NCBI GenBank assembly: GCA_964638955.1
Contig: CAZWZQ010000012.1
Coordinates: forward strand, 2,093-66,092
DNA from: an uncultured Rikenellaceae bacterium
GTDB taxonomy: Bacteria; Bacteroidota; Bacteroidia; Bacteroidales; VadinHA17
Reading direction: 5' to 3'
DNA: 64,000 nt
Below are positions 7,552 through 36,019 of the stretch, piece after piece. Positions within the stretch are counted from its first letter, which is position 1, and each line of letters begins with the position of its first letter. The notes beneath the pieces are model-generated. The model saw nothing but the letters and a program-made list of their open reading frames with translations, searched no databases and was not told the DNA's origin. The position numbers were made by a program, and so were the translations under genes.

Positions 7552-7575
7552 TTATTAAAAGCAAAAATAATTAAG

Positions 7576-13679: not shown

Positions 13680-14126
13680 CTATAAATTTATTTGATTAAT
13701 AATTTTATCAGCAATATTTCTTACAAGATATGAAATATTTTCCCCGAAATCAACTTTTTCAGGTTGAATCCCGAGGATATACACGGGCATGGTGAAGAAA
13801 TCTGACAGCCTGTTTAAAGAAATGTTGTGAGTATTAAATGTTATATCCTGTATCTGATTTAATTCCAGTAATTTAAATGTACCCGGATCAGATTGCAGTT
13901 CCATACAATCCAGAAGCACCAGTAAATCGGGATTTAGACTGTTGATTTTTCCGATATAATTTTCAATGCTCGTTTCAACCGTCAGTGATGCTATATTATC
14001 CCTGTTCATAATCCGGTTGCTTATATAAACACCAACACCATCATCTCGTTTTAGAAGATTACCAATACCGACAAAAAGAATTTTCTTATCTTTTTGGGAA
14101 AGAAGATGATCCAGGTATTTAAGCAC
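13680..14126 (-). CDS. hycI: Hydrogenase maturation endopeptidase (HycI-like)
   Basis: VGIGNLLKRDDGVG, LLDC, THNISL motifs. Confidence 0.85.
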   Translation of the reverse strand: MLKYLDHLLSQKDKKILFVGIGNLLKRDDGVGVYISNRIMNRDNIASLTVETSIENYIGKINSLNPDLLVLLDCMELQSDPGTFKLLELNQIQDITFNTHNISLNRLSDFFTMPVYILGIQPEKVDFGENISYLVRNIADKIINQINL

Positions 14127-14739
14127 CTTTATACAAATATTTTACAAGGATTTGTCTCAGACAGTTGGGACAAATAATGTTGAACATGTCTTTTCTCTTG
14201 AGGTCATCCAGTATTTCAACATCGACATCCTGTTCCTCCGCCAGTTTTAATTTTTCATTAAGGAGGTTCAGGTTAATAATAGATGAGAATGCTTTGGGCC
14301 CGAGTTTCCTGTGTAAAAAATGCAGATGTTCTTTTGTTGTTATAACCGCGCCGCAATTCTTACAGATTAGAAGTTCCTTCTCCTGGTACTCGACATTATT
14401 CTGCCTGTCAAATGTCGCAATATCGTAAATTTTATCTGATAATATAACCCCCTTTCCGGTAATGCAATGTTCCTGACACATACCGCAAAAAATACATTTG
14501 CCGTAGTCTCTTTTAATTATCCTTATACCTTTTTCCTTATTATCAGTGACTGTAATAGCATAAGGAGGACAAACATTTGCACATGTTTCACAACCAACGC
14601 AGTTATCATTATCCACAACAGGTTTACCCCTGTAATTCTCAAAAGGCACATGCGGCTTCGCGGGGAATTTTGAGGTATATGCCGGAGTAACAAGTGATAC
14701 GACTGCTTCTTTAATCTCTCTTATCTTAGGGTATTTCAT
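14119..14739 (-). CDS. 2x[4Fe-4S] subunit of the membrane hydrogenase (MbhN/HycF/NuoI-like) with an extra Cys-rich tail
   Basis: YRGKP, CVGCETCANVCP, CIFCGMCQEHC; further CKNC and CPNC. Confidence 0.88.
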   Translation of the reverse strand: MKYPKIREIKEAVVSLVTPAYTSKFPAKPHVPFENYRGKPVVDNDNCVGCETCANVCPPYAITVTDNKEKGIRIIKRDYGKCIFCGMCQEHCITGKGVILSDKIYDIATFDRQNNVEYQEKELLICKNCGAVITTKEHLHFLHRKLGPKAFSSIINLNLLNEKLKLAEEQDVDVEILDDLKRKDMFNIICPNCLRQILVKYLYKGA

Positions 14740-15062
14740 TTTACTACCTCCTTATAATCATCTTTAACGCTTTTATCGTAAAGCTTTGTGCCAAAATGAT
14801 AAGCACCCCGTATTAGAGCATGTGCTGCCACAGTTGAGCTGAAGAACAGTATAGGGATCGCGATCAGGGCTTTAAATCCGGCGTCGTTGAATCCATAGTG
14901 AAAAATGACTGCGAGAAGAATACTGCAACAACCTAGTGTAACACATTTTGTGGCCGACTGAAGCCTGTTATAAACATCCGGAAGACGTATTAATCCAATA
15001 CATCCGAAGATATTGAACAATACACCTATACATATTAATATAATTGTAATCATATTACTCAT
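14736..15062 (-). CDS. mnhG: Mrp antiporter subunit G
   Basis: GLIRLPDVYNRLQSATK, AAHALIRGA. Confidence 0.9.
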   Translation of the reverse strand: MSNMITIILICIGVLFNIFGCIGLIRLPDVYNRLQSATKCVTLGCCSILLAVIFHYGFNDAGFKALIAIPILFFSSTVAAHALIRGAYHFGTKLYDKSVKDDYKEVVK

Positions 15063-15321
15063 TTAATTTTTTCCCGCTAAGATATTTTGCCAGTGTCAGG
15101 GTTCCTATAAAACTCAGAATAATCCATGCTATACCGATGTCGAGGATAAATGATTTTTCAGTTTGTATTGATATTATAGCACATATACCTACTACCAGTA
15201 TCCCGAAAATGTCAATTCCCACCATCCTGTCAGGAATTGTCGGTCCGCGAATTATCCTGAAAAGGCAGACAGCACTCAGCCCTATCTGGATATAAAGCAG
15301 TATTGTAAGAAAATCAGTCAT
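15055..15321 (-). CDS. mnhF: Mrp antiporter subunit F
   Basis: RIIRGPTIPDRMVGID, three TM helices. Confidence 0.9.
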   Translation of the reverse strand: MTDFLTILLYIQIGLSAVCLFRIIRGPTIPDRMVGIDIFGILVVGICAIISIQTEKSFILDIGIAWIILSFIGTLTLAKYLSGKKLNE

Positions 15322-15803
15322 TCCGCAAATCTTTTAATGTATTTCTCAAATTTTCCTGTAATCCTTTTGGTATAGACATCAGGATCTTCGGAACTTACAT
15401 AGATCCAGTGAATATAAAAGTCATCATCGATAATGTCAACGGTTATCGTACCAGGTGTCATTGTAATAGAGTTGGCAAGCATTGTTTTTGCAAACCCCGA
15501 TTTTAATGTTGTTTTTACTTTGACAATCCCGGGTCTAATCGGCATTGCAGGATGCAATACCCTGTATGCAACATCAAAATTAGCTTTTATACATGCCCAG
15601 ATGAAAATTACCAGATAGACAAGAAACCAGAAATAACGTTGTGGTTGAAGGAATTTATAAACTCTATGAAAATAATATTTTGCAAAGATTACAGAGCATA
15701 GAGCAGCTGCAACAGAGCCGACAATAAGATTAGGGACAGTGATTCTGAAGGTTATGAGCAACCAGAAGACCAGGGATAATATGAATACTGCTGCATATCT
15801 CAT
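15318..15803 (-). CDS. mnhE: Mrp antiporter subunit E
   Basis: ANFDVAYRVL, LANSITMTPGTITVD. Confidence 0.9.
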   Translation of the reverse strand: MRYAAVFILSLVFWLLITFRITVPNLIVGSVAAALCSVIFAKYYFHRVYKFLQPQRYFWFLVYLVIFIWACIKANFDVAYRVLHPAMPIRPGIVKVKTTLKSGFAKTMLANSITMTPGTITVDIIDDDFYIHWIYVSSEDPDVYTKRITGKFEKYIKRFAE

Positions 15804-15804
15804 T

Positions 15805-17343
15805 TTACATGCCTGTTATAATTGAAGAATACTTTGAAGGATCCATTAATATATCTGTTGCCGGGCTCAGGATTATATCTCTTATTCCCGGGAAGGCCAG
15901 TATACTTAGAAGAAGACAAACAATGCTCAGGATGATCATGCTGAACAGCATCGGGAAAGGTACTTCCCTGATCTTTATTTTATTTCCTGCGTCAGTTTTG
16001 TTAAAGAAGGCATACCGTTGAAATTTCATGAATGAAGCCAGAGTTATTATACTGACAATAACTGCCAGAAGCGCCAGAAGGTAAAATCTGGCCAGAATAG
16101 CTGCAACTATGATGATCAGCTTGCTGAAGAATCCATTGAACGGCGGTATGCCGGAAATTGACATAGATGCAACAAATGAAGTTGCAGATGTTACAGGCAT
16201 TGATTTAGACAGTCCTCCCATTTCCTGCAGATTACGTGTACCAATAGCATATTCTATAGCACCGGCATTCAGGAATAATAATCCCTTAAATGCTGCATGG
16301 TTAATCAGATGAAAAATACCACCGGCTATTGCCAGGGCCGCAATTTCAGTCCTGATACCTCTTGAAATAAGTATCATCCCGATGCCGACCGACAGAACAA
16401 CATATCCCATCTGACTTATGCTGTGATAGGCCAGCAATCTTTTTATATCCCATTGACCGATTGCAAGAAAAACACCGACAACCATGGATAATGTTCCCAG
16501 AGTGGTAATAAGAATGGCCATGCCTTCGCTTATTGCAAACATATTGAAGAAGAGCCGTATGATGACATAAATACCGACCGCTTTTATAAGCACCCCCGAC
16601 AGCATTGCAGATATCGGCGATGGTGCCGATGAATGTGCATCGGGGAGCCAGGCATGAAAAGGCATTATGGCAGCTTTCAAACCGAATCCGCTTAATAGCA
16701 GAATCTGAACCAGGAGATAATATTTTCTGTCGTATCCCGAGCTAAAAACATTTCTTATATCGGCAATATTGAGAGTTTTTGCTTTCCAGTAAAGGAATGC
16801 TATTCCTGTCAATATCAGGAATGAGGCAAGTCCGCCCAGTACCTGGTACTTGAATGTTGCCTCCAGTTCATTTTTCTCAACTCCGAATGCAACAAGAGCA
16901 TAAGAAGAAATAGCGGAAATTTCGACAAAGACAAAAATATTGAACATATCACCGCTCAGAACCACTCCGTTCATGCCTGCAATCATCAGGCAGAAAAGTG
17001 AATAGAAATTATTTTCGGCAGTATATCTGCTTATATAAGATATAGAATAGAAGACTGACAGGAAACCAATAAGATTTATAATACAAAGAACTATCACTGT
17101 AAACCCGTCAAGGACCATATAAATACCGACAGGGATGTTGTTCACGGCTTCCCATCCTCCGACTTTGTATACTGATACTTTACTGCCTGTTGTAAAAAGG
17201 AAATAGAAGCTGACAGTAACCAGGAACAGAAGAACGAGAGAGGCAAGATATTTGTTCAAATGCCTGATAAAACTGCCGAGAATCATTATCAGGAAAGCTC
17301 CTGCGAGAGGAATAACAACAAATAAAGGTATCAGCGGATTCAT
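15805..17343 (-). CDS. mnhD: Mrp subunit D / antiporter-like proton-conducting membrane subunit
   Basis: GDMFNIFVFVEI, KAAIMPFHAWLPDAH, IKRLLAYHSISQMG, NHAAFKGLLF. Confidence 0.9.
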   Translation of the reverse strand: MNPLIPLFVVIPLAGAFLIMILGSFIRHLNKYLASLVLLFLVTVSFYFLFTTGSKVSVYKVGGWEAVNNIPVGIYMVLDGFTVIVLCIINLIGFLSVFYSISYISRYTAENNFYSLFCLMIAGMNGVVLSGDMFNIFVFVEISAISSYALVAFGVEKNELEATFKYQVLGGLASFLILTGIAFLYWKAKTLNIADIRNVFSSGYDRKYYLLVQILLLSGFGLKAAIMPFHAWLPDAHSSAPSPISAMLSGVLIKAVGIYVIIRLFFNMFAISEGMAILITTLGTLSMVVGVFLAIGQWDIKRLLAYHSISQMGYVVLSVGIGMILISRGIRTEIAALAIAGGIFHLINHAAFKGLLFLNAGAIEYAIGTRNLQEMGGLSKSMPVTSATSFVASMSISGIPPFNGFFSKLIIIVAAILARFYLLALLAVIVSIITLASFMKFQRYAFFNKTDAGNKIKIREVPFPMLFSMIILSIVCLLLSILAFPGIRDIILSPATDILMDPSKYSSIITGM

Positions 17344-17346
17344 AAT

Positions 17347-17685
17347 TTATCCTCTTAAATTTTTTATCTCTCTTATATCAAAGGTTCCGTACTTCCTGTA
17401 TATCCTTATTATAACAGACATTATCATTGCTGTAGTGGCAAGTCCGATAACAATTGCCGTCAAAACCATTGCCTGGGGCAAAGGATCAACATATGTTTTG
17501 ACCGGATCGGCAGGATCAACTATTGGGGCCACACCACCTTCGACAAATCCAATAAGTGCAAAAAACAGGAAGATGCTGAATTCCATTATTGATAGTGAAA
17601 TAGCAATCTTGACCAGGTTTCTTCTGGTTATCACTCCGTAGAGTCCCACAAGAAATAATATAAAGCACAATAAGTAAGGTATCAT
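17347..17685 (-). CDS. mnhC: Mrp antiporter subunit C
   Basis: NLVKIAI, DPLPQAMVLTAIVIGLA. Confidence 0.92.
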   Translation of the reverse strand: MIPYLLCFILFLVGLYGVITRRNLVKIAISLSIMEFSIFLFFALIGFVEGGVAPIVDPADPVKTYVDPLPQAMVLTAIVIGLATTAMIMSVIIRIYRKYGTFDIREIKNLRG

Positions 17686-18119
17686 TCCGACATTTCTTCT
17701 TTAAATATTACCAGCGCTAAAAATATTGAAAGTATCGAAGCGGCTACCTCAATACCTATAAATATATTATAAAGGGGCAGCATTCCGGCACTTACAAGTT
17801 CACCAGGGGTTCCTTTCGGGAGCCAGTTTAGGAAAAAGATCTTTGCCCCGAAGAGCATACCGGAAACAGCCAGGAAAACAGCAACAAGAATAGCAAGATT
17901 CTCATAGATCGTAGAGCCAGTCTCTTCTTTCGTCAGCTTCATGAAGTCGCTTCCGTTGGCAAGGATCAGTAGTATGAAAGATCCCGCTATAAGAACACCA
18001 CCGGCAAAGCCGCCACCCGGTGTAAGATGACCATGTATTATAACATATATACCGTAAAGAAATATCAGCCCTGCAATGAGCTGTGTCGTTTTCTTTACTA
18101 TGAGCGTCATACCTTTCAT
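17682..18119 (-). CDS. mnhB: Mrp antiporter subunit B
   Basis: HGHLTPGGGFAGG. Confidence 0.9.
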   Translation of the reverse strand: MKGMTLIVKKTTQLIAGLIFLYGIYVIIHGHLTPGGGFAGGVLIAGSFILLILANGSDFMKLTKEETGSTIYENLAILVAVFLAVSGMLFGAKIFFLNWLPKGTPGELVSAGMLPLYNIFIGIEVAASILSIFLALVIFKEEMSE

Positions 18120-18143
18120 TTATTCAATTGATTTAAGAACAAG

Positions 18144-18640
18144 GATTAACGATTTTTGATTTTTGAAGTTTGACTTATATTTTAATAGATAGATTCTTTT
18201 GAGCTGTTTCTGCACTTTTTACAAAAATTGAAATAAGTTCATTGTTTTCATTTAACGCTATCTTGATTTTCTCTTCCGATTTATAAAGCCCTGAACGAAA
18301 AATAATCTTAAGACAAACATAGCTTTCTCTAAGTTCTTTAAGTACTATTTTAATTTTGTGAATGAAATCTTTTCTGGATTCTCCACTTTGTGCTTCTCCA
18401 TAATTTAACGCTGGAGATGTTCCAGAACGTATTAATTGTCCGGCAAGATGATTTGAAGCTCTTGTATCAGGCATATTTTCACATATTTCAATAATCATCA
18501 CCGCAAAATTTATTAATCGTTCCTCAAGATCATGTTTATTCATCTTATTAATAGTCATACAAATATTATTACAAACTCACTTCTTAAATCATAAATCGTT
18601 AATCATAAATCATAAATCGTTAATCATCATTCATCATTCA
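18144..18640. mobile_element. Cassette of a four-helix-bundle gene between inverted heptamer tandem arrays, inserted in the mrp genes
   Basis: Left array 18144-18178 (GATTAAC GATTTTT GATTTTT...) and right array 18585-18640 (8 heptamers, with a 21-bp unit repeated twice) are inverted, 18/19 identical. Mobility is inferred. Confidence 0.6.
18175..18558 (-). CDS. Four-helix-bundle protein (23S rRNA IVS / S23 family)
   Basis: LEERLINFA, QLIRSGTSPALNYGEA, DFIHKIKIVLKELRES, ENNELISIF. Confidence 0.9.
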   Translation of the reverse strand: MTINKMNKHDLEERLINFAVMIIEICENMPDTRASNHLAGQLIRSGTSPALNYGEAQSGESRKDFIHKIKIVLKELRESYVCLKIIFRSGLYKSEEKIKIALNENNELISIFVKSAETAQKNLSIKI

Positions 18641-18650
18641 AAAAAGACCA

Positions 18651-19178
18651 TTATTTTTTCCCTTTGATTCTTAATATTGTAAGAACACCCAGTACAGCAG
18701 TAATAAGCACTGTTGCTTCGCCCAGTGTATCGTATCCTCTGAAGTCAAAGATAACACCCGTAACAAGGTTGGCACTTCCTGTCTTCGCAGTTGCCCCCTC
18801 AATATAATGGGCAGCCATGCGAAGAGTACCATGTCCGAAAGCATCAAGAGTCTCTATTGAAATTTTAAAAAAGTAAAACAATACCACAACCAGCAATATA
18901 GCTGTAACTGATGACACATATCCCTGTGCATCAGGCTTTGAAAACAATTCTTCCCTGGAGCTGTCAAGTACAACAGCCACCATTATGATTAGAGAGATTG
19001 TTTCAACAACTATCTGGACAATTGCCAGGTCGGGAGCCTTAAGAAGAAGGAAACAAATCACAAGTCCATAGCCTACAATGCCGCATGCAATAACCGCTGA
19101 AAGCAGGTCTTTTGCATGGATTGCATATAATGCCCCAAGGATCATCAGTCCTGTTATTATGGATATGGTAATTTCCAT
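18651..19178 (-). CDS. DUF4040 + MnhB-N membrane subunit (split MrpA C-terminus; MbhD/E-like)
   Basis: [15 protein letters not shown] and [19 protein letters not shown]. Confidence 0.85.
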
Positions 19179-19192
19179 TTAAGTCAGGTTAT

Positions 19193-21091
19193 TTATATCA
19201 TAATGAGCAACATAATAATCAATCCGGCACAGACCCAGATAATATAGCCCGGCAATACCCCTGTATGAGCCTCACTGAACAGGTGGCTCACCCAGAGTAC
19301 AAACTTTTTTGACAGGTCATAAATATCAAACCACTTCTCTTCAGCTTTTTTATATATCCATGAAAAGAACCTGAATTCTCCTATAGTCTTATAAAATTCG
19401 GATGTGGTGTAACTTGTCCGTTCCTGGAATTTCTCCCCGCCGATAAAGCTGTCCTCCCTTCTGAATTTCTTAAGATTAAGAGCAAGGTAAAGGATAATTC
19501 CGAGGATCAATGATATAATTACAAGGAATGATACAAGTGATGAGTTCCAGAATCCCATAAACTGAAATTCACCTGTCACGGGCATTATTAATTTTGGCAC
19601 GATGTAATTTGTGGCAAAAATACCGAAGCCGATACATGACAGTGCAAGTACAACCAGGGGTGTCCACATTAAAAAGGGAACTTCGCGTACATTCTCAAGA
19701 GAAGCTTTACGGCGGCCCAGAAATATGCCACCGATGAACTTGATAAGGCTTGCCAGGGTCATAGCTGATCCCAGTACAGCCAGGCCAAGCCATATTACCC
19801 AGAGTTTATTTGCAATGTCCGGCCCGGAGCCAAAATCAATTATTCCCTGGTAGATCATCCATTTTGAAGCGAATCCGTTAAATGGCGGCACACCGGAGAT
19901 TGACATAGCAAAAATAATAGCTGCAAAGAATGTTACAGGCATAACTTTCGAAAGGCCGCCGAGCTCATCGAAATTTTCTTCGTTTGTTCTGTGTTCTACA
20001 CAGCCGGCGGAAAGAAACAGTCCGCTTTTGTAAAGAGCATTGTTGATCATGTGAAAAAGACCGGCAGCAATACCAATAATTGAACCGAGCCCGAATCCAA
20101 GTATCATATATCCTACCTGAGATACCGTACTGAATCCCAACAGGCGTTTGTAATTATTCTGGACAAGCGCCATCATACCTGCACCGATAATTGTTATTAC
20201 TCCTGTTATCAGTAACAGCAATCTCATCCATTCATTAAGGATAAAGATATCCATGGTTATCCTTGCCAGAAAATATATTCCAAGCAATTTATCAAGTGAA
20301 GCAGGCAGCAGGGCAGAAGAAGAAGCCGGAGCATCCTTTGTGTAATCCGGAACCCAGGAATGAAAAGGGAAAGCGCCCGCCTTTGTGAAGCTTCCGACAA
20401 GAAGCGCAAGGAATGCAGTTACGACAAGGATATTGGTTGTGGGCAAACTGATAGAATCCATGCTGAGAGAACCGGTCAGCCTCCATAACATTGCAATTCC
20501 GATTATCATTATTGAGTCTGATGCTCCTATGAGAATAAGAGTTTTTTTTGCTGTGGCCGAGCTCTCTTCATCACGGCCCGGTATCAGTTTGTAAAGGGTA
20601 ATTCCGAGTATTCCCCAGAAGGTGAGAAATAAAATAAGATTATCAGCCAATACAGCACCATAAGAACAACCAATCGTGATAAGAAACCAGGGGTAGTAAT
20701 TTTTTGCTCTGCCGCCCTTTATATATACGAGTGAATATAATAATATAAGAACTGCGAAAATGCTGATAGACAATGTTATGAGCTTACTGATATTATCAAT
20801 TGTGAAGGTAAAGTATTTTTCAGCACCCTGCAGCAGGTTTGAACCAAACAACATTGTACACGATTTTCCGATCATTCCATCAAGTACTACCATCTGGGCC
20901 GATGTAGTGAAAAGTGAAAGAGTCATGAATCCGGTCACCAGGCTTATCAGAAGGGCAAATATCCCCTTGGCTGTTATGAACTTATCAGGAATCAGAAACA
21001 GGAGAACTCCTGCAGCAAGAGGCACAAGTATCAGAAATTGCAGAAAACCGCAAATAGATGGCTGTGATATTATGGATATAAACTCATTCAT
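19193..21091 (-). CDS. MrpA/NuoL/HyfB-like antiporter-type membrane subunit
   Basis: TKAGAFPFHSWVPD, YKRLLGFSTVSQVG, SGVPPFNGFASKW; about 16-17 hydrophobic segments. Confidence 0.88.
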   Translation of the reverse strand: MNEFISIISQPSICGFLQFLILVPLAAGVLLFLIPDKFITAKGIFALLISLVTGFMTLSLFTTSAQMVVLDGMIGKSCTMLFGSNLLQGAEKYFTFTIDNISKLITLSISIFAVLILLYSLVYIKGGRAKNYYPWFLITIGCSYGAVLADNLILFLTFWGILGITLYKLIPGRDEESSATAKKTLILIGASDSIMIIGIAMLWRLTGSLSMDSISLPTTNILVVTAFLALLVGSFTKAGAFPFHSWVPDYTKDAPASSSALLPASLDKLLGIYFLARITMDIFILNEWMRLLLLITGVITIIGAGMMALVQNNYKRLLGFSTVSQVGYMILGFGLGSIIGIAAGLFHMINNALYKSGLFLSAGCVEHRTNEENFDELGGLSKVMPVTFFAAIIFAMSISGVPPFNGFASKWMIYQGIIDFGSGPDIANKLWVIWLGLAVLGSAMTLASLIKFIGGIFLGRRKASLENVREVPFLMWTPLVVLALSCIGFGIFATNYIVPKLIMPVTGEFQFMGFWNSSLVSFLVIISLILGIILYLALNLKKFRREDSFIGGEKFQERTSYTTSEFYKTIGEFRFFSWIYKKAEEKWFDIYDLSKKFVLWVSHLFSEAHTGVLPGYIIWVCAGLIIMLLIMI

Positions 21092-22293
21092 TTCTGCCGG
21101 ATAAGGTTTTTCTTGAGTTCAGATGTTTTATCTGATGATATATTAATGAGGTCATTTGCACTCCAGATCTTCCTGCCCGATTTATGATCATAGGCAACAG
21201 CCATACGCTCGGTACAGCAATAGCATGGATCGACAGCTGCAAGTGAAATTGTAGCATCTGAAATTGTTTGTCCGATACATGATTTTTTAAATGTTGCAAT
21301 ATTGACGTAACTGGGAGCCCTTATTTTATGTCTTACCGGTGAGTTTGACCCGTCTGAGACTACAAAGTGAAATACTTCACCCCTGGGAGCCTCAGCACGT
21401 CCTGTTCCGGAACCTTCAGGTATCTCTTTTACAACGATGTTTATATCACCCTCCTTTGTTTTTTCTAGTCCATTCAGACACTGGTCAATGATGGATATTG
21501 ATTCATACATTTCCAGTAATCTGACCTCAGCTTTAGCGAATACATCACCCTCTTCAGCTGTGATCACCTTCCAGTCTACAAGCGGGTAAGCAGCATAGGG
21601 GTCATCCTTTCTAATATCAATTGCCACACCTGAAGCCCGTGCTGTGGGACCTACAGCAGCATAATCAATAATGTCCTGTTTCGTAAGAATGCCTACGCCT
21701 TTGGTCCTTGCATGTATTACAGGATCATCCATCACAGCTCCTGTGAGGATATCATTTTTCTTTTTGAACTCGTAGATAGTTTTTCTTATGGCAGGTATCT
21801 TACTGTTCTCAATATCGCGACGAACTCCTCCGACCCTGAACATGGCATAGCTGTTCCTGTTCCCGGTGATCATTTCAAAAAGATCAAGAATGGGTTCACG
21901 GTATTTCCATGCCCACATAAATACCGTGTTGTATCCCAGAAAATGTCCGGCAAGACCAACCCAGAGAAGATGACTGTGAATACGTTCAAGTTCACCGATG
22001 ATCGACCTGATATATTTTGCCCTGTCAGTGATCTCCTTTCCCACAATCTCCTCAACAGCATTGGCAAAAGCAAAGGGATGTGAGGTTGAACATATGCCGC
22101 AAATACGTTCCACAAGAAAGAATACCTGCTCATAGGTCTTCGATTCACTCAACTTTTCAATGCCCCTGTGATTATAGCCTGTTTCCCATTTAATATCCCT
22201 TACTATCTCTCCGTCGCAGTAGAGCTTGAATAACTCAGGTTCCTCCTGCAGCGGGTGATAGGGTCCGATTGGTATGAGTGTATGTTTGCTCAT
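21088..22293 (-). CDS. Group 4 [NiFe]-hydrogenase large subunit
   Basis: L1 ERICGICSTSH, L2 DPCYCCTER followed by a C-terminal extension, GYNHRGIEK, EAPRGE. Confidence 0.92.
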   Translation of the reverse strand: MSKHTLIPIGPYHPLQEEPELFKLYCDGEIVRDIKWETGYNHRGIEKLSESKTYEQVFFLVERICGICSTSHPFAFANAVEEIVGKEITDRAKYIRSIIGELERIHSHLLWVGLAGHFLGYNTVFMWAWKYREPILDLFEMITGNRNSYAMFRVGGVRRDIENSKIPAIRKTIYEFKKKNDILTGAVMDDPVIHARTKGVGILTKQDIIDYAAVGPTARASGVAIDIRKDDPYAAYPLVDWKVITAEEGDVFAKAEVRLLEMYESISIIDQCLNGLEKTKEGDINIVVKEIPEGSGTGRAEAPRGEVFHFVVSDGSNSPVRHKIRAPSYVNIATFKKSCIGQTISDATISLAAVDPCYCCTERMAVAYDHKSGRKIWSANDLINISSDKTSELKKNLIRQK

Positions 22294-22308
22294 CTTCTGC
22301 TCAGGTTA

Positions 22309-22746
22309 TTATTTAAATTCTTTCCTGTATGGATAAACACCTTCTGCCCAGTTGCCTTCTGATAGCAGTTTCTCCAGGTTGGGGTGATTGATAAAGTTGA
22401 TACCAAATAATTCATGCATTTCCCTCTCAATCCAGTTGGAGGCATTGAACATATTTGAAAGTGATTCAATCTGAGGATTCTCCTTGTCGAGTATAACATG
22501 AATATTCAGTATCAACTCTGTTTTATCCAGACTGAAATGATAATGTATTTCAAATCCATGTTTTGTATGTAATGCTGAAGCAATTATAAATCTGAATCCG
22601 GCTGTTTTGTACATGTACTCTGCAGCCTTCAGGATAATATCCGGTTTTACAGAGATAGTTGCACGTTTCTCACTTTTTTTGATAACCTCAATTATATCGG
22701 AATCAAAGTTCTCCTTAAAATTTTTTATGACCAGATCTGTATCCAT
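22309..22746 (-). CDS. NuoC-like (MbhK-like) hydrogenase subunit
   Basis: ASNWIEREMHELFGINFINHP. Confidence 0.88.
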   Translation of the reverse strand: MDTDLVIKNFKENFDSDIIEVIKKSEKRATISVKPDIILKAAEYMYKTAGFRFIIASALHTKHGFEIHYHFSLDKTELILNIHVILDKENPQIESLSNMFNASNWIEREMHELFGINFINHPNLEKLLSEGNWAEGVYPYRKEFK

Positions 22747-22805
22747 CTATTATAGTATCATCTCATTACTTTTTTCTTATCTTTTTTCATTTCGCCGTTC
22801 GCCGT

Positions 22806-23216
22806 TTATTTATTCACAAGTTTCACAATTCCCGCAATTATTGCTTCAGGTTTTGGAGGACATCCCGGGATATATGCATCAACCGGTATTATTTTATCTA
22901 CCGGGCCTGCAAATGGAATACCCTCAGCAAAGATACCTCCTGTACATCCACAAGCCCCTATAGCAACTACGAGCACAGGCTTGGGAGCCTGATTATAAAT
23001 CTCCAGAAGTCTCTCTTTATCCCGCTTATTAATTGATCCGTTCACCAGTAATACATCTGCATGGCGTATGCTTCCAACAAGAAGAATCCCGAACCGTTCC
23101 AGATCGTGTCTTGGTGTAAGACAGTCAAGTATCTCAATGTCACAGTTATTGCAGGATGCTCCACCGAAGTGGAAGACCCAGAGAGATTTTTTGAAGCAAT
23201 AATTCTTAAAACCCAC
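22806..23216 (-). CDS. Group 4 hydrogenase small subunit (MbhJ/HycG/NuoB-like), GTG start
   Basis: SCNNCDIE, RHADVLLV, GACGCTGG, IPGCPPKP. Confidence 0.92.
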   Translation of the reverse strand: MGFKNYCFKKSLWVFHFGGASCNNCDIEILDCLTPRHDLERFGILLVGSIRHADVLLVNGSINKRDKERLLEIYNQAPKPVLVVAIGACGCTGGIFAEGIPFAGPVDKIIPVDAYIPGCPPKPEAIIAGIVKLVNK

Positions 23217-23230
23217 AATTAATATATTTA

Positions 23231-23329
23231 GAGTGTGTAATAGGACTTCCTATATAGCACTCATTCATAATTAAATTATTTTAATCTATATGTTTAATAA
23301 AACTCATATCTCGTATTTATTACACACTC
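23231..23329. mobile_element. 99-bp MITE-like element with 12-bp terminal inverted repeats and a TTA target duplication
   Basis: TTA|GAGTGTGTAATA ...75 bp AT-rich... TATTACACACTC|TTA. GAG ends with a 3-bp TWA duplication match IS5-family IS1031-group rules. Confidence 0.75.
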
Positions 23330-24262
23330 TTAATAGCCAAATGCAATCAATATCAAAGCAATAACAGCAAGCAGGTTCATCCAGATCATAAAGAAGCTGA
23401 TGGCCTGCTTTATCTTAATCCTGGGATTGGTATTTCTTATCAGGGTAAGAATAAGCACCACCAGGAGAACTTTTAGCACCGCCCATAAAATATTTATCCC
23501 TTCCAGTCTGAATCCATTCATTAACAGGGCAATCAGAAAAGCAGGAAGAATGAAGAGCATGATATATTTTGCAAGCTTGATCAATGCATAAGCCGACCCG
23601 GAATATTCAATAAAGATACCTTCGGTTATTTCAGCTTCAGCTTCCGGTATGTCGAACGGAACGAGCGCCAGTTTTGCCTGGATACAGAATATTCCTACAA
23701 TAAATAATAATACACCCGAGATACTACCGATAAAGGGTGTGCCAGCTTGCTGGGTCTGTATAATAGTGTAAAGATCAAACTGTTGCCCGCATTTCATAAT
23801 GATACCGGCTATGACAAGAAGGAACGTGAGCTCGTAGCTGAGAATCAATTTCATTTCTCTTGAGCCTCCAACGGCTGCGAGAGGATTGCCCGAGGCCAGA
23901 GAGCCCATGATGTATGAGAATGAAGGTATAGTAAGCAGGTAGAAAATTACAATGAGATCACCTTTGAATCCGGTAGTGATATTAAACAGGGGCAGGAGAA
24001 TAAAGACTCCGGCCATTACAGCACCGAAAACAGCGAAAACAGGTGCAAGAAGGAACATAAGGGGAGAACCATGCTTTGGAAGGATAGTCTCCTTTACCAG
24101 CAGTAATTTGAAGAAATCGTAAAAGGGTTGTAATATAGGTGGTCCTTTGCGGAACTGCACCCTGGCAGTAATTTTCCTGTCGAACCATGATAGAAAAGCA
24201 CCAGTTACTGCTACAAAAAGCAGCCCGGGAAAGATAAAGAAATAAAACAGGTAATCTGCCAT
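23330..24262 (-). CDS. NuoH/HycD/MbhM-like membrane anchor
   Basis: DRKITARVQFRKGPP, QPFYDFFKLL, PFDIPEAEAEI, EYSG. Confidence 0.92.
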   Translation of the reverse strand: MADYLFYFFIFPGLLFVAVTGAFLSWFDRKITARVQFRKGPPILQPFYDFFKLLLVKETILPKHGSPLMFLLAPVFAVFGAVMAGVFILLPLFNITTGFKGDLIVIFYLLTIPSFSYIMGSLASGNPLAAVGGSREMKLILSYELTFLLVIAGIIMKCGQQFDLYTIIQTQQAGTPFIGSISGVLLFIVGIFCIQAKLALVPFDIPEAEAEITEGIFIEYSGSAYALIKLAKYIMLFILPAFLIALLMNGFRLEGINILWAVLKVLLVVLILTLIRNTNPRIKIKQAISFFMIWMNLLAVIALILIAFGY

Positions 24263-24263
24263 A

Positions 24264-24761
24264 TTACATGTTTTCAGTGATATATAAATATTCTTTTACA
24301 AGCACTCTGTCGTTCAGGCTGTAAATATTTTTTTCAGGCGACTCATCCTCATCAGTAAGGGTAACTATTCCCGGAGGACATGCTTCAATGAACTTTCTCA
24401 ATTCGTTTTCATCCGTAAGATCATAAAACATGTCTTTGTTCCTTTGATGTTTGAAGAAGTCAGTCATCATGGTTCCGAAAGGGCAGATTGCAACACACGA
24501 TTTACAGGATACGCAAAGGTTGGTATGACGGTTTATCACTCCTTCCTCATCCTTTTCGAGAGCATCTGCCGGGCAAACAGCTATACAGGGCGCATCTTCA
24601 CATTTCCTGCATGTAAACCTGAATATTGCCAGCTCACGGATACTCTTCAACCCATTCGAATTTACTGATGGATAAAACATTGCCTCCGGTAGAGCAATAT
24701 TTGAATCTTCAACCATTGCAGCCCTGAGTTTTATCATATCTATCAATATCTTCTGTCCCAT
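24264..24761 (-). CDS. [4Fe-4S] ferredoxin-like electron-transfer subunit (HycB/HydN-like)
   Basis: CRKCEDAPCIAVCP and CVSCKSCVAICPFG. Confidence 0.85.
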   Translation of the reverse strand: MGQKILIDMIKLRAAMVEDSNIALPEAMFYPSVNSNGLKSIRELAIFRFTCRKCEDAPCIAVCPADALEKDEEGVINRHTNLCVSCKSCVAICPFGTMMTDFFKHQRNKDMFYDLTDENELRKFIEACPPGIVTLTDEDESPEKNIYSLNDRVLVKEYLYITENM

Positions 24762-24805
24762 GACTCTGTATAAACAAAATATATAGTTGCCCTGTGTGTT
24801 TTGCC

Positions 24806-25261
24806 TTATAACATCAGCTGGTTCATCAGCTGGAATCTTGTGTCGCTAAGTCTTTGAGATATTGTCTGAGCAATTTTTGACATAGTTTTAAAACCAAAAT
24901 TGCAGTCTTTGATAAATTCTTCGTTAAGCTTAGCTGAATCCATAACCATAACCTTTGCTGGTGTAACTGCCATTACCCATGCTGTTGAAATGTGCGGTTT
25001 GAAGATAGCTGACCATGAAAAGAGTTGTCCCTCCTCAACGGTTCCGAGATGTATTCTTTTTTCTGATGGCAGACTTATGCCAAGTGAAAGAGTTCCTTTA
25101 AGAAGAACTGAAATATAGTTAAGTTCATCATATTGTTCAAAAAGCATCTCTTTTACTTTATACTCTCTCACCGAACTGGTCGATATGATTGTTTGCAGCT
25201 GCTTATCAGTATAGCTGTCAAAAAACCTTATATTCTTAAGATCATTAATAGTTATTTTCAT
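24806..25261 (-). CDS. Stand-alone cyclic-nucleotide-binding-domain protein (no HTH)
   Basis: LFEQYD, ISVLLKGTL, GQLFSWSAI, STAWVMA beta-roll pattern; 151 aa, ends before any DNA-binding domain. Confidence 0.8.
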   Translation of the reverse strand: MKITINDLKNIRFFDSYTDKQLQTIISTSSVREYKVKEMLFEQYDELNYISVLLKGTLSLGISLPSEKRIHLGTVEEGQLFSWSAIFKPHISTAWVMAVTPAKVMVMDSAKLNEEFIKDCNFGFKTMSKIAQTISQRLSDTRFQLMNQLML

Positions 25262-25310
25262 CGTTTATTTCATGGTTGATTAAATAAATCAAATTACCAA
25301 GATATCCCTT

Positions 25311-26135
25311 TTATTTCCAGATATCCGGTGTATTCTTCAATTCGCTGTAAGTAAATACCGGTCCATCCTTACATACAAAATATTCACCCAACATGCAATG
25401 TCCGCATTTTCCAAGGCCGCATGACATATTCCTTTCCATTGAAAGATAAATCTGGTGGTCATCGTATCCCATTTCAAGTAGTCTTAAAGTACCAAATTTC
25501 ATCATAATGGGCGGACCGCAAACAACAGTCACTGATTCTTTTATATTGATATCTATCTTATTCAGCAGGCTTGTTACTACACCCACTGATTCATTCCATT
25601 CTTCGTCAGGCTTATCTACTGTTCTGTGTGTTTCAAATTTCTCAATCTTATTAAGTCTTGAGAAGAGAGGTTTGTAAACACAGTCCGAGGGTGTTTTTGC
25701 CCCGTAGCATAATATGACTCTTTTAAGTTTGTCGGTGATACTTTCCAGTGTATAAAGAAGTGACCTTATCGGGGCCAGGCCACAACCGCCGCCAAGGATG
25801 AGAACCTCTTTCCCGTGGAATTTCTCTACAGGATATCCCCTGCCATAAGGTCCCCTTATACCCATGAATGAACCCGGTTCCAATGCATGCATATATTCTG
25901 TTACATACCCTGTTTTCATTACCGTTACTTCAATCTGATCTTTCACCAGGGGTGATGATGAGGGTGTAAAAGGTGCTTCACCTATGCCATCAACTGATAG
26001 TTCTATAAATTGTCCTGTCTTAAATGAAAACTCTTCTTCAGGTTCAAGCACAAATGTTTTTATTACCGGCGATTCGGCAATCACTTCGGTTAATTTAGCT
26101 CTTATGGGTTTATATATATTATTATTGTGTCCCAT
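25311..26135 (-). CDS. FAD/NAD(P)-binding [2Fe-2S] subunit, AsrB / sulfhydrogenase-gamma / PyrK family
   Basis: GQFIEL, RGPYG, GGGCGLAP, CGPPIMM, CGLGKCGHC...C. Confidence 0.9.
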   Translation of the reverse strand: MGHNNNIYKPIRAKLTEVIAESPVIKTFVLEPEEEFSFKTGQFIELSVDGIGEAPFTPSSSPLVKDQIEVTVMKTGYVTEYMHALEPGSFMGIRGPYGRGYPVEKFHGKEVLILGGGCGLAPIRSLLYTLESITDKLKRVILCYGAKTPSDCVYKPLFSRLNKIEKFETHRTVDKPDEEWNESVGVVTSLLNKIDINIKESVTVVCGPPIMMKFGTLRLLEMGYDDHQIYLSMERNMSCGLGKCGHCMLGEYFVCKDGPVFTYSELKNTPDIWK

Positions 26136-26143
26136 TCATTTTA

Positions 26144-27133
26144 TCATGAGAGTTCCATGAAAAGTTCATTTTTATTTATCTTTCCGATACAGGCTTCGAT
26201 ACATCTTCCGCATCCTGTGCATGCAAGAGAATTGAATTTCAGTGGTTTCCATACATACTTGCACATATATCTGTTCCTGAAGCGGTCGGGAAGTTCAAAA
26301 AGAGCATCTTCGCCACCGGCCACTTTTTCAAAGCCCGGATACTGACAGGCATCCAGCAGCTTAACCTTTTCAAAACCGGGCTTATCGATAAGCAGAAAAC
26401 ATGTACATGTGGGGCATATAGTCGCACAGGCTCCACATGAAACACAGCGTTTTGAATATTTTTCCCATATTTCCCTGCTTGCCCCGACAACAATCTTACC
26501 TGTCTTTTCATAATCGGGCAAACCTTTATTTGATTCAGTAAGAAGAGCCTCAGTTGTTTGATGTTCTTTTTCTATTGTATCAAGAATATTCTTGTCATCA
26601 CATGTTGTAACTTCAGGTATTGTTTTCAGGAAATCTTCTCCTTTCTTAGTTACTATCCTGAAAATTATTTTCCCATTTAGATTTATGATAGCCAGATCAC
26701 ATTTATTAACTGAATATGGCTTTATATTATATGATAGACAATGACAATGGTCCAGTATACCAAAGCAATCGGAGGATATAAGCAGGGTGTTCTCTCTTCT
26801 TTTTTTATAGAAGGTATCAGTGAAATCTTTGTCCAGATATATCTCATCAAGAATTGATAATCCTTCAATATCACAATTAGGGGCACCGATAATGATCCAG
26901 GGTCTGATGTCGGTTTTTTCTGCAGATACATTTTCCTTGACAGGAAGGAAAATGCTTTTCAACGATGTGGCAGGTTTAGGTTTATTATATGTTATTCTTG
27001 CTATGTCAGCCGACTTTATCAACTCATAATCCTGGCCAAAATCATTACTGACAGTTGCAAAAATGGTATGGGACGACAATAATCTTTCAATGGCCTTGTC
27101 CCACTTTTCCTTTCCTATGCTTTTGTACTGCAT
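26144..27133 (-). CDS. [4Fe-4S] subunit, AsrA / sulfhydrogenase-beta family
   Basis: PNCD, CVSCGACATICPTCTC, RFRNRYMCK, CTGCGRCIEAC. Confidence 0.88.
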   Translation of the reverse strand: MQYKSIGKEKWDKAIERLLSSHTIFATVSNDFGQDYELIKSADIARITYNKPKPATSLKSIFLPVKENVSAEKTDIRPWIIIGAPNCDIEGLSILDEIYLDKDFTDTFYKKRRENTLLISSDCFGILDHCHCLSYNIKPYSVNKCDLAIINLNGKIIFRIVTKKGEDFLKTIPEVTTCDDKNILDTIEKEHQTTEALLTESNKGLPDYEKTGKIVVGASREIWEKYSKRCVSCGACATICPTCTCFLLIDKPGFEKVKLLDACQYPGFEKVAGGEDALFELPDRFRNRYMCKYVWKPLKFNSLACTGCGRCIEACIGKINKNELFMELS

Positions 27134-27134
27134 T

Positions 27135-27154
27135 TATGTGAGAGGATTCACATA
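27135..27154. promoter_or_regulatory. Rex-like operator just upstream of the hydrogenase operon start codon
   Basis: TATGTGA-GAGGAT-TCACATA palindrome (TGTGA-N6-TCACA core). Confidence 0.65.
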
Positions 27155-27318: not shown

Positions 27319-27336
27319 TTGTGAAACAATTCACAA
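27319..27336. promoter_or_regulatory. Perfect Rex operator overlapping the rex start codon
   Basis: TTGTGAA-ACAA-TTCACAA equals the established consensus TTGTGAA-N4-TTCACAA. Confidence 0.88.
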
Positions 27337-28007
27337 AAAGCATCAGAAAAAACAGTCTGAAAAGAATATTTATTTACCGTTCCTGTCTGCAACGGATGAG
27401 TATGAAAGGAGTGGAAAAGGTATTCTCATACACTCTTGCAAACGAAGCTGGTGTGACAGCTGATCAGGTACGAAGAGATTTTTCGGAATTCAATATAAAA
27501 GGAAGGAAACGAGGTGGTTATATAATAAGTGATCTTCTTGAAAATATGGAGACCATATTGCACCGCAATAAGGATCACAGCCTTATCCTTGTCGGTATCG
27601 GCAATCTTGGGCTGGCGCTGACAAAATACAGCAAATTTATTCAGCCCAACATGAAGATAGTTGCAGCTTTCGATATAGACCCTTCAAAACATAAACGAAA
27701 AGCATCTGACATCCCTGTATACAGTATGGACAGACTGCAGGAGATCATTTCAAAGTACAGGGTAAGTGTGGCAATTATTGCTGTTCCGGAAATTTCCGCC
27801 CGGGAAGTCGCTGAAGATCTTGTGCGTTCAGGAATAAAAGGGATTGTTAACTTTGCCCCGGTACCTCTGAAAATGTCTCCTGATATTGTAATTAATAATA
27901 TGAATCTAGGCGATGAGCTTGAAAGTGTGATCTATTATGTTCACAAACAATATAGAGTAAACGGTCTTAAAAACATTGAGCTATTATACAAGGATATGAA
28001 ATACTGA
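27321..28007 (+). CDS. rex: Redox-sensing transcriptional repressor Rex
   Basis: LKRIFIY, QVRRDFSEF...GRKRGGY winged HTH, GIGNLG Rossmann motif, GIVNFAP; an in-frame TAA upstream makes GTG 27321 the first possible start. Confidence 0.92.
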   Translation: MKQFTKSIRKNSLKRIFIYRSCLQRMSMKGVEKVFSYTLANEAGVTADQVRRDFSEFNIKGRKRGGYIISDLLENMETILHRNKDHSLILVGIGNLGLALTKYSKFIQPNMKIVAAFDIDPSKHKRKASDIPVYSMDRLQEIISKYRVSVAIIAVPEISAREVAEDLVRSGIKGIVNFAPVPLKMSPDIVINNMNLGDELESVIYYVHKQYRVNGLKNIELLYKDMKY

Positions 28008-30238: not shown

Positions 30239-30462
30239 TGTGTTTAAGTATTCCTGCGAAAATAGTATCAATTGATGGCAGCATGGCAGAAGTTTCTGTT
30301 GGGGGAAGCCTGTTTAAAGCAGGCTTGCATATGATTAAAGATGCAAAGATCGGAGATTATATTCTTCTCCATGCCGGGTTTGCAATTCAGAAGATAAGCG
30401 AGCAGGAGGCGACTGACACTCTAAAAATCCTTCGTGAAATGGATGATGCCCTGAATAAATAA
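30238..30462 (+). CDS. hypC: HypC chaperone
   Basis: MCLSIPAK, LLHAGFAI. Confidence 0.95.
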   Translation: MCLSIPAKIVSIDGSMAEVSVGGSLFKAGLHMIKDAKIGDYILLHAGFAIQKISEQEATDTLKILREMDDALNK

Positions 30463-30464
30463 TC

Positions 30465-32554: not shown

Positions 32555-32564
32555 TGAATAGGGT

Positions 32565-32906
32565 ATGCATGAAATAAGAATAGCGCAGGATCTGTCAGTA
32601 ATTGTTCTGGAAGCAGCAAAACGGGAAAAGCTGGCCAGGGTAACGAAGGTGAATATCAGTTTCGGACAGCTGATACAGATAGTGCCTGATATCTTCAGGT
32701 TTGCATTCAGTGAGGCGGTTAGGGATTCGGTTGCCGAAGAGGCTGAAATAGATATTGAAATATTGCCTGTAAAAATGAAATGTATAAAATGCCAGAACGA
32801 TTTTCAGGTTATTGATAACCGGTTTGCTTGTAATGTCTGCGGATCAACCGACCTGGAAATCATTCAGGGGAAGGAATTGTTTATAAAAAGTATTGAAGGA
32901 GAATAG
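32565..32906 (+). CDS. hypA: HypA nickel metallochaperone
   Basis: MHE N-terminus, CIKC and CNVC. Confidence 0.93.
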   Translation: MHEIRIAQDLSVIVLEAAKREKLARVTKVNISFGQLIQIVPDIFRFAFSEAVRDSVAEEAEIDIEILPVKMKCIKCQNDFQVIDNRFACNVCGSTDLEIIQGKELFIKSIEGE

Positions 32907-32908
32907 CA

Positions 32909-36007: not shown

Positions 36008-36019
36008 TACCCTGACGAG

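Follow-up and report, generated by a model that had tools for sequence, protein, structure and literature searches.

What supplies the electrons to a membrane-bound [NiFe] hydrogenase when its genes share one operon with an AsrAB-like flavoprotein/Fe-S pair and a full set of Mrp-type antiporter genes? This question is raised by a locus of an uncultured Rikenellaceae bacterium (Bacteroidales; GTDB VadinHA17), located on contig CAZWZQ010000012.1 in a window of 64,000 nucleotides (nt), the whole stretch of DNA that was analysed. The locus is an operon on the minus strand, running from 27133 to 13680 of the window; the open reading frames (ORFs) called in the window were scanned against Pfam, NCBIfam and the Protein Data Bank (PDB). 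Judged by its sequence, the operon is, gene for gene and motif for motif, the Hun supercomplex named by Glass et al. (2021, bioRxiv 10.1101/536078). A slight preference is given here to the reading that Hun passes electrons from NAD(P)H to protons through the HunABC subunits, forming H2 in a reaction coupled to a Na+/H+ gradient, under the control of the repressor Rex.

Identity of the operon

Hun was described as a 16-subunit Ni-Fe hydrogenase-Na+/H+ antiporter supercomplex, HunA-P, in a study of methane hydrate sediments dominated by Atribacteria, where it was predicted from genomes only; HunAB were recognized as AsrAB-like, HunC as ferredoxin-like, HunE-G together with HunP as the hydrogenase, and HunH-O as Mrp-like (bioRxiv 10.1101/536078). 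In the same work HunG was assigned to HydDB group 4g, with the distinctive motifs CGIC...CYCC, and the hosts comprised Atribacteria, Firmicutes, Omnitrophica, Elusimicrobia, Bacteroidetes and isolates of Kosmotoga. The operon of the window has the hunA-P gene order and the CGIC...CYCC motifs, with two extra, non-core inserts: a gene for a cyclic nucleoside monophosphate (cNMP)-binding domain protein and a gene for a four-helix-bundle protein. Since the architecture has been named and reported in Bacteroidetes, the operon represents a further member of the known, uncharacterised Hun type.

The preliminary description had put the operon forward as an undescribed system, which is no longer tenable because the cluster had already been published under the name Hun, with HunAB compared to AsrAB and Bacteroidetes among the hosts (Glass et al. 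2021, bioRxiv 10.1101/536078). Its further statement that it knew of no biochemical description of such a complex agrees with our literature search, which found none; for later work on Hun, the search yielded only Glass et al. 2021. Related reports are of an 'enigmatic' Mrp-Mbh with cooF, asrA, asrB and a molybdopterin protein in Saganbacteria (Carnevali et al. 2019, PMC6349859) and of a 'Mbh-Mrp-oxidoreductase type' of unknown function in Elusimicrobia (Meheust et al., 10.1101/765248); clusters of a related kind are on record for Atribacteria as well. The possibility of NADH as the donor had been raised by 2019, while the entry for group 4g in HydDB reads uncharacterised and 'ferredoxin-coupled (putative)'. 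Mrp-linked Mbh hydrogenases of Cloacimonadota, a phylum with a hun operon in the present survey, have also been called 4g. Added here are the scale of conservation in Bacteroidales and in further phyla, the invariance of the flavin and nucleotide motifs of HunB, the formate hydrogenlyase (FHL)-like wiring through HunC and HunP, the optional cNMP gene, and the recurrent rex gene with its operators.

Hydrogenase core and antiporter arm

The ORFs form an uninterrupted, co-oriented and tightly packed run, in which neighbours at seven junctions overlap by 4-8 nt or lie 1-3 nt apart (the gap between hunC and hunD is 1 nt). Every component that the preliminary description had listed for a single co-oriented operon was recovered on the minus strand in the Pfam and NCBIfam scans, and the gene content given below is directly observed, as are the intact cofactor motifs.

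The large subunit, HunG (21088..22293; Pfam Complex1_49kDa and NiFeSe_Hases), is of the group 4 [NiFe] type, with best PDB matches to MbhL (6cfw_L, 1e-83) and HycE (7z0s_E, 4e-78). Its L1 motif RICGICSTSH and L2 motif DPCYCCTER are both invariant in 66 sequences, which bears out the earlier claim of intact Ni ligands. The 35-residue C-terminal extension that follows L2 fits the presence of a large-subunit maturation endopeptidase of the HycI type, encoded by the last gene of the operon (13680..14126; Pfam HycI; TIGR00142, TIGR00072). The small subunit, HunE (22806..23216; Pfam Oxidored_q6; median identity across loci 91%), is NuoB-like with one [4Fe-4S] cluster and retains the four cysteines in CxxC, GACGC and GCPP. 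HunF (22309..22746; Pfam Complex1_30kDa) is NuoC-like, and HunD (23330..24262; Pfam NADHdh, 2e-64) is a membrane subunit similar to NuoH and MbhM. HunP (14119..14739, 206 amino acids (aa); Pfam Fer4_7) is NuoI/HycF-like with two [4Fe-4S] clusters; it matches the NCBIfam formate hydrogenlyase Fe-S subunit at 96.8 bits, and its best PDB match is HycF (7z0s_F, 5.7e-18) versus 8.4e-10 for MbhN. Thus, the operon has the four Ni-Fe cysteine ligands in a NuoD-like large subunit, the single-[4Fe-4S] NuoB-like small subunit, and the NuoH-, NuoC- and NuoI-like partners of a group 4 [NiFe] hydrogenase. HunP is also about 65 residues longer than Pyrococcus MbhN, with an extension in its C-terminal third that carries CKNC...CPNC; on its sequence this is a possible zinc ribbon or extra metal site and might serve in docking of HunC.

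The mrp genes are located between hunG and hunP and are therefore inside the hydrogenase gene set. HunH (19193..21091, 632 aa; Pfam Proton_antipo_M) is an antiporter-like subunit resembling the N-terminal part of MrpA, NuoL and MbsH', with PDB matches to MbhH, MrpA and MbsH' (aligned over residues 111-627). HunI (18651..19178; Pfam MbhD and MbhE) is an MbhD+MbhE fusion (DUF4040) equivalent to the C-terminal domain of MrpA, to region 600-790 of which NCBIfam aligns it. The hunJ-O block (14736..18119) consists of Mrp-type genes, each with its own Pfam family: MnhB (17682-18119), MnhC/NuoK-like (17347-17685), MrpD/MbhH-like (15805-17343; best PDB matches MbhH, 1e-80, and MrpD 7qru_D), MnhE (15318-15803), MrpF (15055-15321) and MnhG (14736-15062). 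Equivalents of all seven subunits of an Mrp (CPA3) module, MrpA-G, are thus present, with MrpA represented by two separate pieces, one NuoL-like and the other of the MbhD/E type. The PDB matches also uphold the earlier count of two antiporter-like subunits, MrpA-like and MrpD-like, versus one in Pyrococcus MBH.

Conservation of the gene order

Relatives were sought with HunA among genomes sampled at one per species, which gave 168 genomes with a HunA relative, the best 80 of which were all uncultured Bacteroidales/Bacteroidota; overall, the relatives of HunA are spread over at least 1,400 protein clusters. Synteny was assessed by tblastn of every window protein against the related loci, and counts are given as loci with the gene over loci with enough flank. 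The linkage of asrAB with group 4 and mrp genes was found in the same order in every eligible locus, in about 80 species of Bacteroidales: the AsrB-like gene in 77/77 loci, the ferredoxin gene in 73/73, the NuoH gene in 67/67, the NuoB gene in 66/66, the large subunit gene in 59/59 and the MbhDE gene in 55/55. This arrangement is far above chance. The order of hunJ-O is kept up to the limit of the flank in genome loci and up to the end of the operon in metagenome loci. A metagenome scan anchored downstream has MnhG, the NuoI-like gene and hycI ending the operon, with hycI after hunP in about 27 metagenome loci that hold the hun 3' end. Two JGI metagenome contigs, Ga0315537_1009064 (L086) and Ga0315539_1027221 (L087), carry the 3' end of the operon with 97-100% protein identity to the window, which places the source organism, or one very closely related to it, in those samples.

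At 34-47% identity, HunA relatives are also found in hun operons of other phyla: Spirochaetes, Cloacimonadota, Omnitrophica, Elusimicrobia, Latescibacteria, Aerophobetes and Candidatus Mcinerneyibacterium. One record with a hun operon is named like an isolate, Marinilabiliaceae bacterium JC017 (L084; GCA_004296775.1).

The more distant loci differ in detail. A Hun variant (L169, 5606-8883) has an extra antiporter-like subunit of 464 aa, encoded between the large-subunit gene and the MrpA-like one, and so reaches a total of three such subunits. In Omnitrophica (L166, 1688-7991) and Aerophobetes (L171, 1-9895), hun directly follows Wood-Ljungdahl genes (acetyl-CoA synthase/CdhC-D, RACo, formate-tetrahydrofolate ligase), which hints at a tie of Hun to acetogenesis or its reversal in these two groups. 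In Latescibacteria (L170, 802-6042), a group 1/2-type [NiFe] hydrogenase pair is located just upstream of hun, and after the pair come genes for a PAS histidine kinase and a sigma-54 response regulator; these genes may constitute an H2-sensing regulatory unit.

The proposed HunABC input arm

HunA (26144..27133, 329 aa; Pfam Fer4_22) is an Fe-S subunit similar to AsrA and to sulfhydrogenase beta, with its best PDB match, over the full length, to the beta subunit of Pyrococcus furiosus sulfhydrogenase I (SHI; 9nez_B, 4.6e-31); its cysteine motifs CxxCxxCxxxCP and CxxCxxCxxxC are conserved among 85 sequences. HunB (25311..26135, 274 aa; Pfam FAD_binding_6, NAD_binding_1 and DHODB_Fe-S_bind) is a flavoprotein similar to AsrB and to sulfhydrogenase gamma, and SHI gamma is its best PDB match (9nez_C, 5.6e-50; the alignment spans residues 4-272). 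HunC (24264..24761, 165 aa; Pfam Fer4_11) is a connector ferredoxin of the HycB/CooF/HydN type with two [4Fe-4S] clusters, and its PDB matches include HycB3/HycB4 of HDCR (7qv7) and HycB of E. coli FHL (7z0s_B). In 84 sequences of HunB from several phyla, the flavin motif GEAPFTPSSSP as well as GGGxGxAPxRS, K147, CGPP and CGxGKCGHC...C show no variation or almost none, a pattern that speaks in favour of a working NAD(P)(H) site. The characterised relatives of HunB that were found (SHI gamma, PyrK, an NfnA homologue, NqrF and cytochrome b5 reductase) all bear names tied to pyridine nucleotide, and group 3b enzymes are NADP-coupled according to HydDB.

The similarity of the pair to AsrA/B and to sulfhydrogenase beta/gamma, and the label 'sulfhydrogenase subunit beta (sulfur reductase)' on some relatives, suggest another role, in which HunA and HunB act outside the hydrogenase, serving an AsrC or a group 3b enzyme encoded elsewhere or reducing sulfur or polysulfide themselves. 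Both proteins fall below every curated cut-off of this kind: HunA, by a wide margin, for ShyB (135 bits, cut-off 690), AsrA (117, cut-off 323) and HydB (114, cut-off 750), and HunB for AsrB (207, cut-off 289), ShyC (177, cut-off 600) and HydG (168, cut-off 650). An AsrABC enzyme is not indicated, with no NIR_SIR protein in the window or in the related loci, nor is a group 3b sulfhydrogenase, the only [NiFe] subunits nearby being of the group 4 type. The preliminary description had remarked on the lack of asrC (NIR_SIR domain) and of group 3 hydrogenase subunits, and neither was found among the scanned main ORFs of the window, short nested ORFs being outside the scan. With the pair in strict synteny with hunC-P in all loci and phyla examined, a role outside the hydrogenase is very improbable. 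The proposed role of the pair as a dedicated module of the membrane hydrogenase is strengthened, since every genome examined, from at least eight phyla in all, has it in strict synteny with the genes for the ferredoxin and NuoH.

Reduced ferredoxin is the more serious competitor as a donor. In this alternative, HunABC take electrons from reduced ferredoxin, H2 evolution pumps H+/Na+ as in MBH, and HunB has its FAD/NAD domain as a structural element or a vestige; Glass et al. proposed exactly this donor (bioRxiv 10.1101/536078), and the HydDB label for group 4g agrees. The large and MrpD-like subunits have their nearest counterparts in MBH, which is ferredoxin-dependent, and several [4Fe-4S] clusters in HunA, HunC and HunP could dock ferredoxin. 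However, MBH uses ferredoxin without an extra module, whereas three additional proteins are strictly conserved here, and the flavin and NAD(P) motifs of HunB, invariant across phyla, are unlike a vestigial site, so that a conserved flavoprotein would be left unexplained. Every characterised relative of HunB that was found has a pyridine-nucleotide-linked name, and the assumption in Glass et al. of ferredoxin as the source of electrons for AsrAB is at odds with the domains that AsrAB contain. A ferredoxin-driven Hun is accordingly judged unlikely, though by no means negligible. NAD(P)H coupling is plausible from the sequences and better supported than the published ferredoxin prediction; it is favoured because the FAD, NAD(P) and [2Fe-2S] motifs of HunB are invariant, the match to SHI gamma is full-length, rex is recurrent and the operators are at fixed positions.

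Proposed redox control by Rex

Divergent from hunA, on the plus strand, is a rex gene (27321..28007; NCBIfam NF003996, 208.8 bits versus a cut-off of 138; Pfam Put_DNA-bind_N and CoA_binding). The 186-nt spacer between rex and hunA holds the sole two TGTGA-N6-TCACA palindromes of the 64 kb (0.06 expected). The first Rex-type operator (27137..27152, TGTGAGAGGATTCACA) ends 4 nt upstream of the start codon of hunA, and the second (27320..27335, with flanks TTGTGAAACAATTCACAA) is located at the start of rex; with its flanks, the latter agrees at every position with the classical consensus for Rex operators. Thus, a repressor gene above its cut-off is accompanied by two candidate operators of the TTGTGAAnnnnTTCACAA type upstream of hunA, as in a Rex regulon.

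The same features recur in related loci, where they are likewise directly observed. In Bacteroidales, rex is the divergent neighbour of hunA in 67/73 loci, and palindromes at about -19 and about -202 from the hunA start are found in 72 of 78 loci (at least one palindrome, and in most loci both). In loci of Omnitrophica, Elusimicrobia and Latescibacteria, rex is co-directional and immediately upstream of hunA, so that rex is next to hunA in at least four phyla and in two gene arrangements. A relaxed operator scan outside Bacteroidales gave a strong site in Omnitrophica only, where a 13/14 match to the Rex consensus at -23 of hunA (L166) is the sole such site in 20 kb. The Hun paper makes no mention of a rex gene or of operators (Glass et al. 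2021, bioRxiv 10.1101/536078).

The repeated association of rex with hun, in two arrangements and at least four phyla, indicates expression at high NADH/NAD+. Rex lets go of DNA when NADH/NAD+ rises. Expression under these conditions fits H2 evolution as a way to dispose of NADH better than it fits uptake of H2, in which H2 would be oxidised, NAD(P)+ reduced and an ion gradient built; H2 oxidation was the second option offered in the preliminary description. Uptake is compatible with a reaction near equilibrium, with the reversibility of which group 4 enzymes are capable (HydDB), and with the Wood-Ljungdahl genes that adjoin hun in some phyla. Derepression at high NADH would nevertheless induce an NADH-producing enzyme at the wrong time, and the window looks like that of a sugar/uronate fermenter with an H2-evolving [FeFe] hydrogenase. 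Uptake as the physiological direction is thus quite improbable.

Proposed mechanism

In the preferred reading, with NAD(P)H as the donor, physical assembly of the subunits, the translocated ion and the direction of the reaction are all predicted from the gene content. The complex would consist of three modules: a core (HunD-G and HunP), an antiporter arm (HunH-O) and an input arm (HunABC). NAD(P)H would give its electrons to the FAD of HunB, from which they would pass to the [2Fe-2S] cluster of HunB and the [4Fe-4S] clusters of HunA, and then by way of the HycB-like HunC to the two clusters of HunP, the small-subunit cluster and the Ni-Fe site, where protons would be reduced to H2. HunC resembles HycB and HunP resembles HycF, which together form the wire from donor to hydrogenase in FHL, and the same wire would here end in a flavoprotein.

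The standard potentials (E0') of NAD+/NADH and H+/H2 are -320 mV and -414 mV, respectively, and H2 formation from NADH is uphill at 1 bar H2 and exergonic below approximately 60-70 Pa. Given these potentials and the dependence on H2, a gradient could either drive the reaction or be fed by it, and with a reaction so near equilibrium its coupling to the Na+/H+ gradient would fall to the Mrp-type arm. At high H2, the formation of H2 would be driven by the gradient, and a small gradient could be conserved when partner organisms hold H2 at a few pascal. Rex would control both the operon and rex itself in this Bacteroidales lineage, switching them on when NADH/NAD+ rises, so that Hun would act as a redox valve in a fermenter. 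On the whole, this reading of Hun as a Rex-controlled, gradient-coupled route from NAD(P)H to H2 through HunABC is somewhat favoured. A more general version is held tentatively, at a little under even confidence: from its sequences, Hun may be a reversible NAD(P)H:H+ oxidoreductase coupled to the Na+/H+ gradient, an H2-evolving counterpart of complex I that acquired its input module for pyridine nucleotide, the PyrK/FNR-type HunAB with a HycB-like connector, independently of NuoEFG.

Several observations weigh against the preferred reading. The sole paper that names Hun predicts a ferredoxin donor (bioRxiv 10.1101/536078), and solvent-exposed clusters of HunA, HunC or HunP could accept ferredoxin. 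The invariant lysine of HunB aligns with an arginine of SHI gamma, an alignment that hints at NADPH, while Rex senses NADH. Rex also controls ferredoxin-dependent hydrogenases in other bacteria, so the link to Rex does not discriminate the direct donor of Hun. In 6/10 non-Bacteroidales or divergent loci with upstream flank, rex is not next to hun, and exact Rex operators were not found in five of these loci (L081-L085). With a NuoEF-linked [FeFe] hydrogenase in the window, moreover, a second outlet for NADH would be partly redundant.

A compromise between the two donors would make Hun a three-way junction, an ion-coupled ferredoxin:NAD(P)+ oxidoreductase that can also vent hydrogen. The long Fe-S chain has several entry points, and the Wood-Ljungdahl genes beside hun in Omnitrophica and Aerophobetes belong to a setting in which pools of ferredoxin, NAD(P)H and H2 need balancing. 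The scans show no bifurcating flavin, the only flavin domains of the input arm being those of the PyrK/FNR type in HunB, and no sequence feature was found that favours a dedicated ferredoxin site. In NfnAB, the PyrK/FNR-type flavin site is not the bifurcating site. Such a dual-donor complex is improbable.

Accessory genes and surroundings of the operon

Two genes within the operon are apparently not part of the core. The cNMP-binding domain gene (24806..25261, 151 aa), between hunB and hunC, matches Pfam cNMP_binding only and encodes no DNA-binding domain or helix-turn-helix. Present in 43/76 Bacteroidales loci and not in the non-Bacteroidales hun loci examined, it was rejected as a core subunit on account of its absence from 33/76 loci; in 35/78 loci, those without the gene, hunB and hunC are adjacent, typically with a gap of about 8 nt (range 3-63 nt). 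Its product could be a lineage-specific regulatory subunit. The four-helix-bundle gene (18175..18558; 23S_rRNA_IVP family, PF05635, TIGR02436), located between mbhDE and mnhB and not listed in the preliminary description, is at the same site in 2/54 other Bacteroidales genomes (L016 and L035) and in two metagenome loci (L095 and L117). With so few loci carrying it, it was rejected as a Hun subunit, and it behaves like a small gene inserted sporadically. A gene of the 23S_rRNA_IVP family is also found within the hyp cluster of a Cloacimonadota hun locus (L082, 4711-5067).

Downstream of the operon by 10 nt is an ORF of 139 aa (13250-13669, minus strand) with two CxxC pairs (CxxC...CxxC) and no family match, followed by a strong terminator-like hairpin (13219-13192). 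An extension of the operon to this ORF was rejected, as approximately 10 metagenome loci have the ORF beside transketolase without hun genes. The ORF has 261 relatives overall, is 74-100% identical in the best 80 metagenome loci, and always adjoins transketolase, whether or not a hun operon is upstream. Rfam and tRNA scans of the window gave no matches, and a scan for sigma-70 promoters, with matches no more numerous than in shuffled sequence, was not used.

Beyond rex, on the plus strand, are the [NiFe] maturation genes hypF-hypC-hypD-hypE-hypA-hypB (28055..33568; Pfam; hypC at 30238-30462), which are next to rex in related loci too. A second hydrogenase (35540-38987, plus strand) follows about 2 kb past the hyp genes, consisting of a NuoE-like protein of 155 aa, a short NuoF-like protein of 386 aa and HydA, which reaches 879 bits with the NCBIfam model 'NADH-dependent [FeFe] hydrogenase, group A6' and so exceeds its cut-off of 765. 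From their sequences, both hydrogenases in this 12-kb neighbourhood may draw on NADH; no exact Rex palindrome is present upstream of the NuoEF-linked [FeFe] hydrogenase. Between the hyp genes and the [FeFe] hydrogenase, on the minus strand (33571-35316), is a gene for a 581-aa protein with a histone-deacetylase-family domain and a weak N-terminal match to GNAT acetyltransferases.

At the other end of the window is a dense signalling block (229-11049, plus strand) that encodes a YfiR/HmsC-like protein, two hybrid PAS histidine kinases of very large size (1008 and 1157 aa), a receiver-kinase, a receiver-SpoIIE phosphatase and an additional PAS kinase. The remaining genes of the window are for sensor kinases, uronate and sugar catabolism, and housekeeping functions. 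The gene content of the window is consistent with an anaerobic fermenter of sugars and uronates.

Significance

Operons for Hun are very common in anoxic habitats, in about 80 species of Bacteroidales and at least seven further phyla. Metabolic reconstructions routinely score Hun as a ferredoxin-dependent Mbh and probably mislabel it. If NAD(P)H is the donor, Hun would become the first case of a pyridine-nucleotide input to a membrane-bound group 4 hydrogenase and would be informative about the acquisition of donor modules by complex I-like machines, and a revision would be due for models of redox balance, H2 thresholds and syntrophy in sediments, digesters and the deep biosphere. If Hun is the reversible NAD(P)H:H+ oxidoreductase tentatively proposed above, fermenters and syntrophs in many phyla would vent electrons of NADH as H2 without ferredoxin or electron bifurcation, with the membrane potential setting the H2 threshold and Rex setting expression, and the default 'ferredoxin-coupled' label for group 4g/Hun in metagenome studies would be overturned. 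The recurrent link to Rex and the existence of hosts that appear to be in culture (isolates of Kosmotoga listed by Glass et al., and Marinilabiliaceae bacterium JC017) make the donor question directly testable.

Comparison with known systems

In comparison with the Hun of Glass et al., the operon has the same 16 genes in the same order and the same CGIC...CYCC motifs; the lineage of the window adds an optional cNMP gene, a 3' hycI gene, and a divergent rex-hyp cluster with two Rex-type operators. The published donor is ferredoxin, whereas the reading favoured here is NAD(P)H. Some Hun variants elsewhere carry a molybdopterin protein (PMC6349859; bioRxiv 10.1101/536078), but the window has no molybdopterin gene between hunB and hunC.

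Among solved structures, P. furiosus MBH (group 4d, PDB 6CFW) is closest in the large subunit (1e-83) and the MrpD-like subunit (1e-80), and shares with Hun an Mrp-derived membrane arm and the logic of an H2-evolving, ion-translocating enzyme. Unlike Hun, MBH has 14 subunits with one antiporter-like subunit and no HunABC arm, and accepts ferredoxin directly at MbhN, to which HunP is less similar than to HycF. By gene content, with two antiporter-like subunits and a HunABC arm, Hun is therefore not a group 4d MBH. The two antiporter-like subunits (MbsH'/MrpA-like and MbsH/MrpD-like) and the full Mrp A-G set are instead found in P. furiosus MBS (PDB 6U8Y) and the Mrp antiporters (7QRU, 6Z16); unlike Hun, MBS is without the Ni ligands, which it has lost, and acts on polysulfide as its reductase, and the stand-alone Mrp antiporters have no redox module.

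The order of the predicted electron path, from a donor enzyme through a HycB-like and a HycF-like protein to the small subunit and the large one, is that of E. coli FHL-1 (group 4a, PDB 7Z0S) and the Mrp-linked formate/CO complexes of Thermococcus (group 4b), and with them Hun also shares a large subunit with a C-terminal extension and a HycI protease. In place of a molybdopterin formate dehydrogenase or carbon monoxide dehydrogenase (CODH), the donor module of Hun is a flavoprotein/Fe-S pair; the Pfam scan found no molybdopterin or CODH gene in the operon, which sets it apart from groups 4a, 4b and 4c. This pair is like SHI beta/gamma of P. furiosus (group 3b, PDB 9NEZ) and AsrAB of Salmonella, with a full-length alignment of HunA and HunB to SHI and the same FAD, NAD(P) and [2Fe-2S] motifs, but its partner is a membrane-bound group 4 hydrogenase rather than a soluble group 3 dimer or the sirohaem protein AsrC.

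If NAD(P)H is the donor, Hun would resemble respiratory complex I in its sequence of pyridine nucleotide, flavin, Fe-S chain, NuoB/D site and antiporter-like coupling. In contrast to complex I, the PyrK/FNR-type HunAB input is not homologous to NuoEFG, and the acceptor would be H+ at the Ni-Fe site instead of a quinone.

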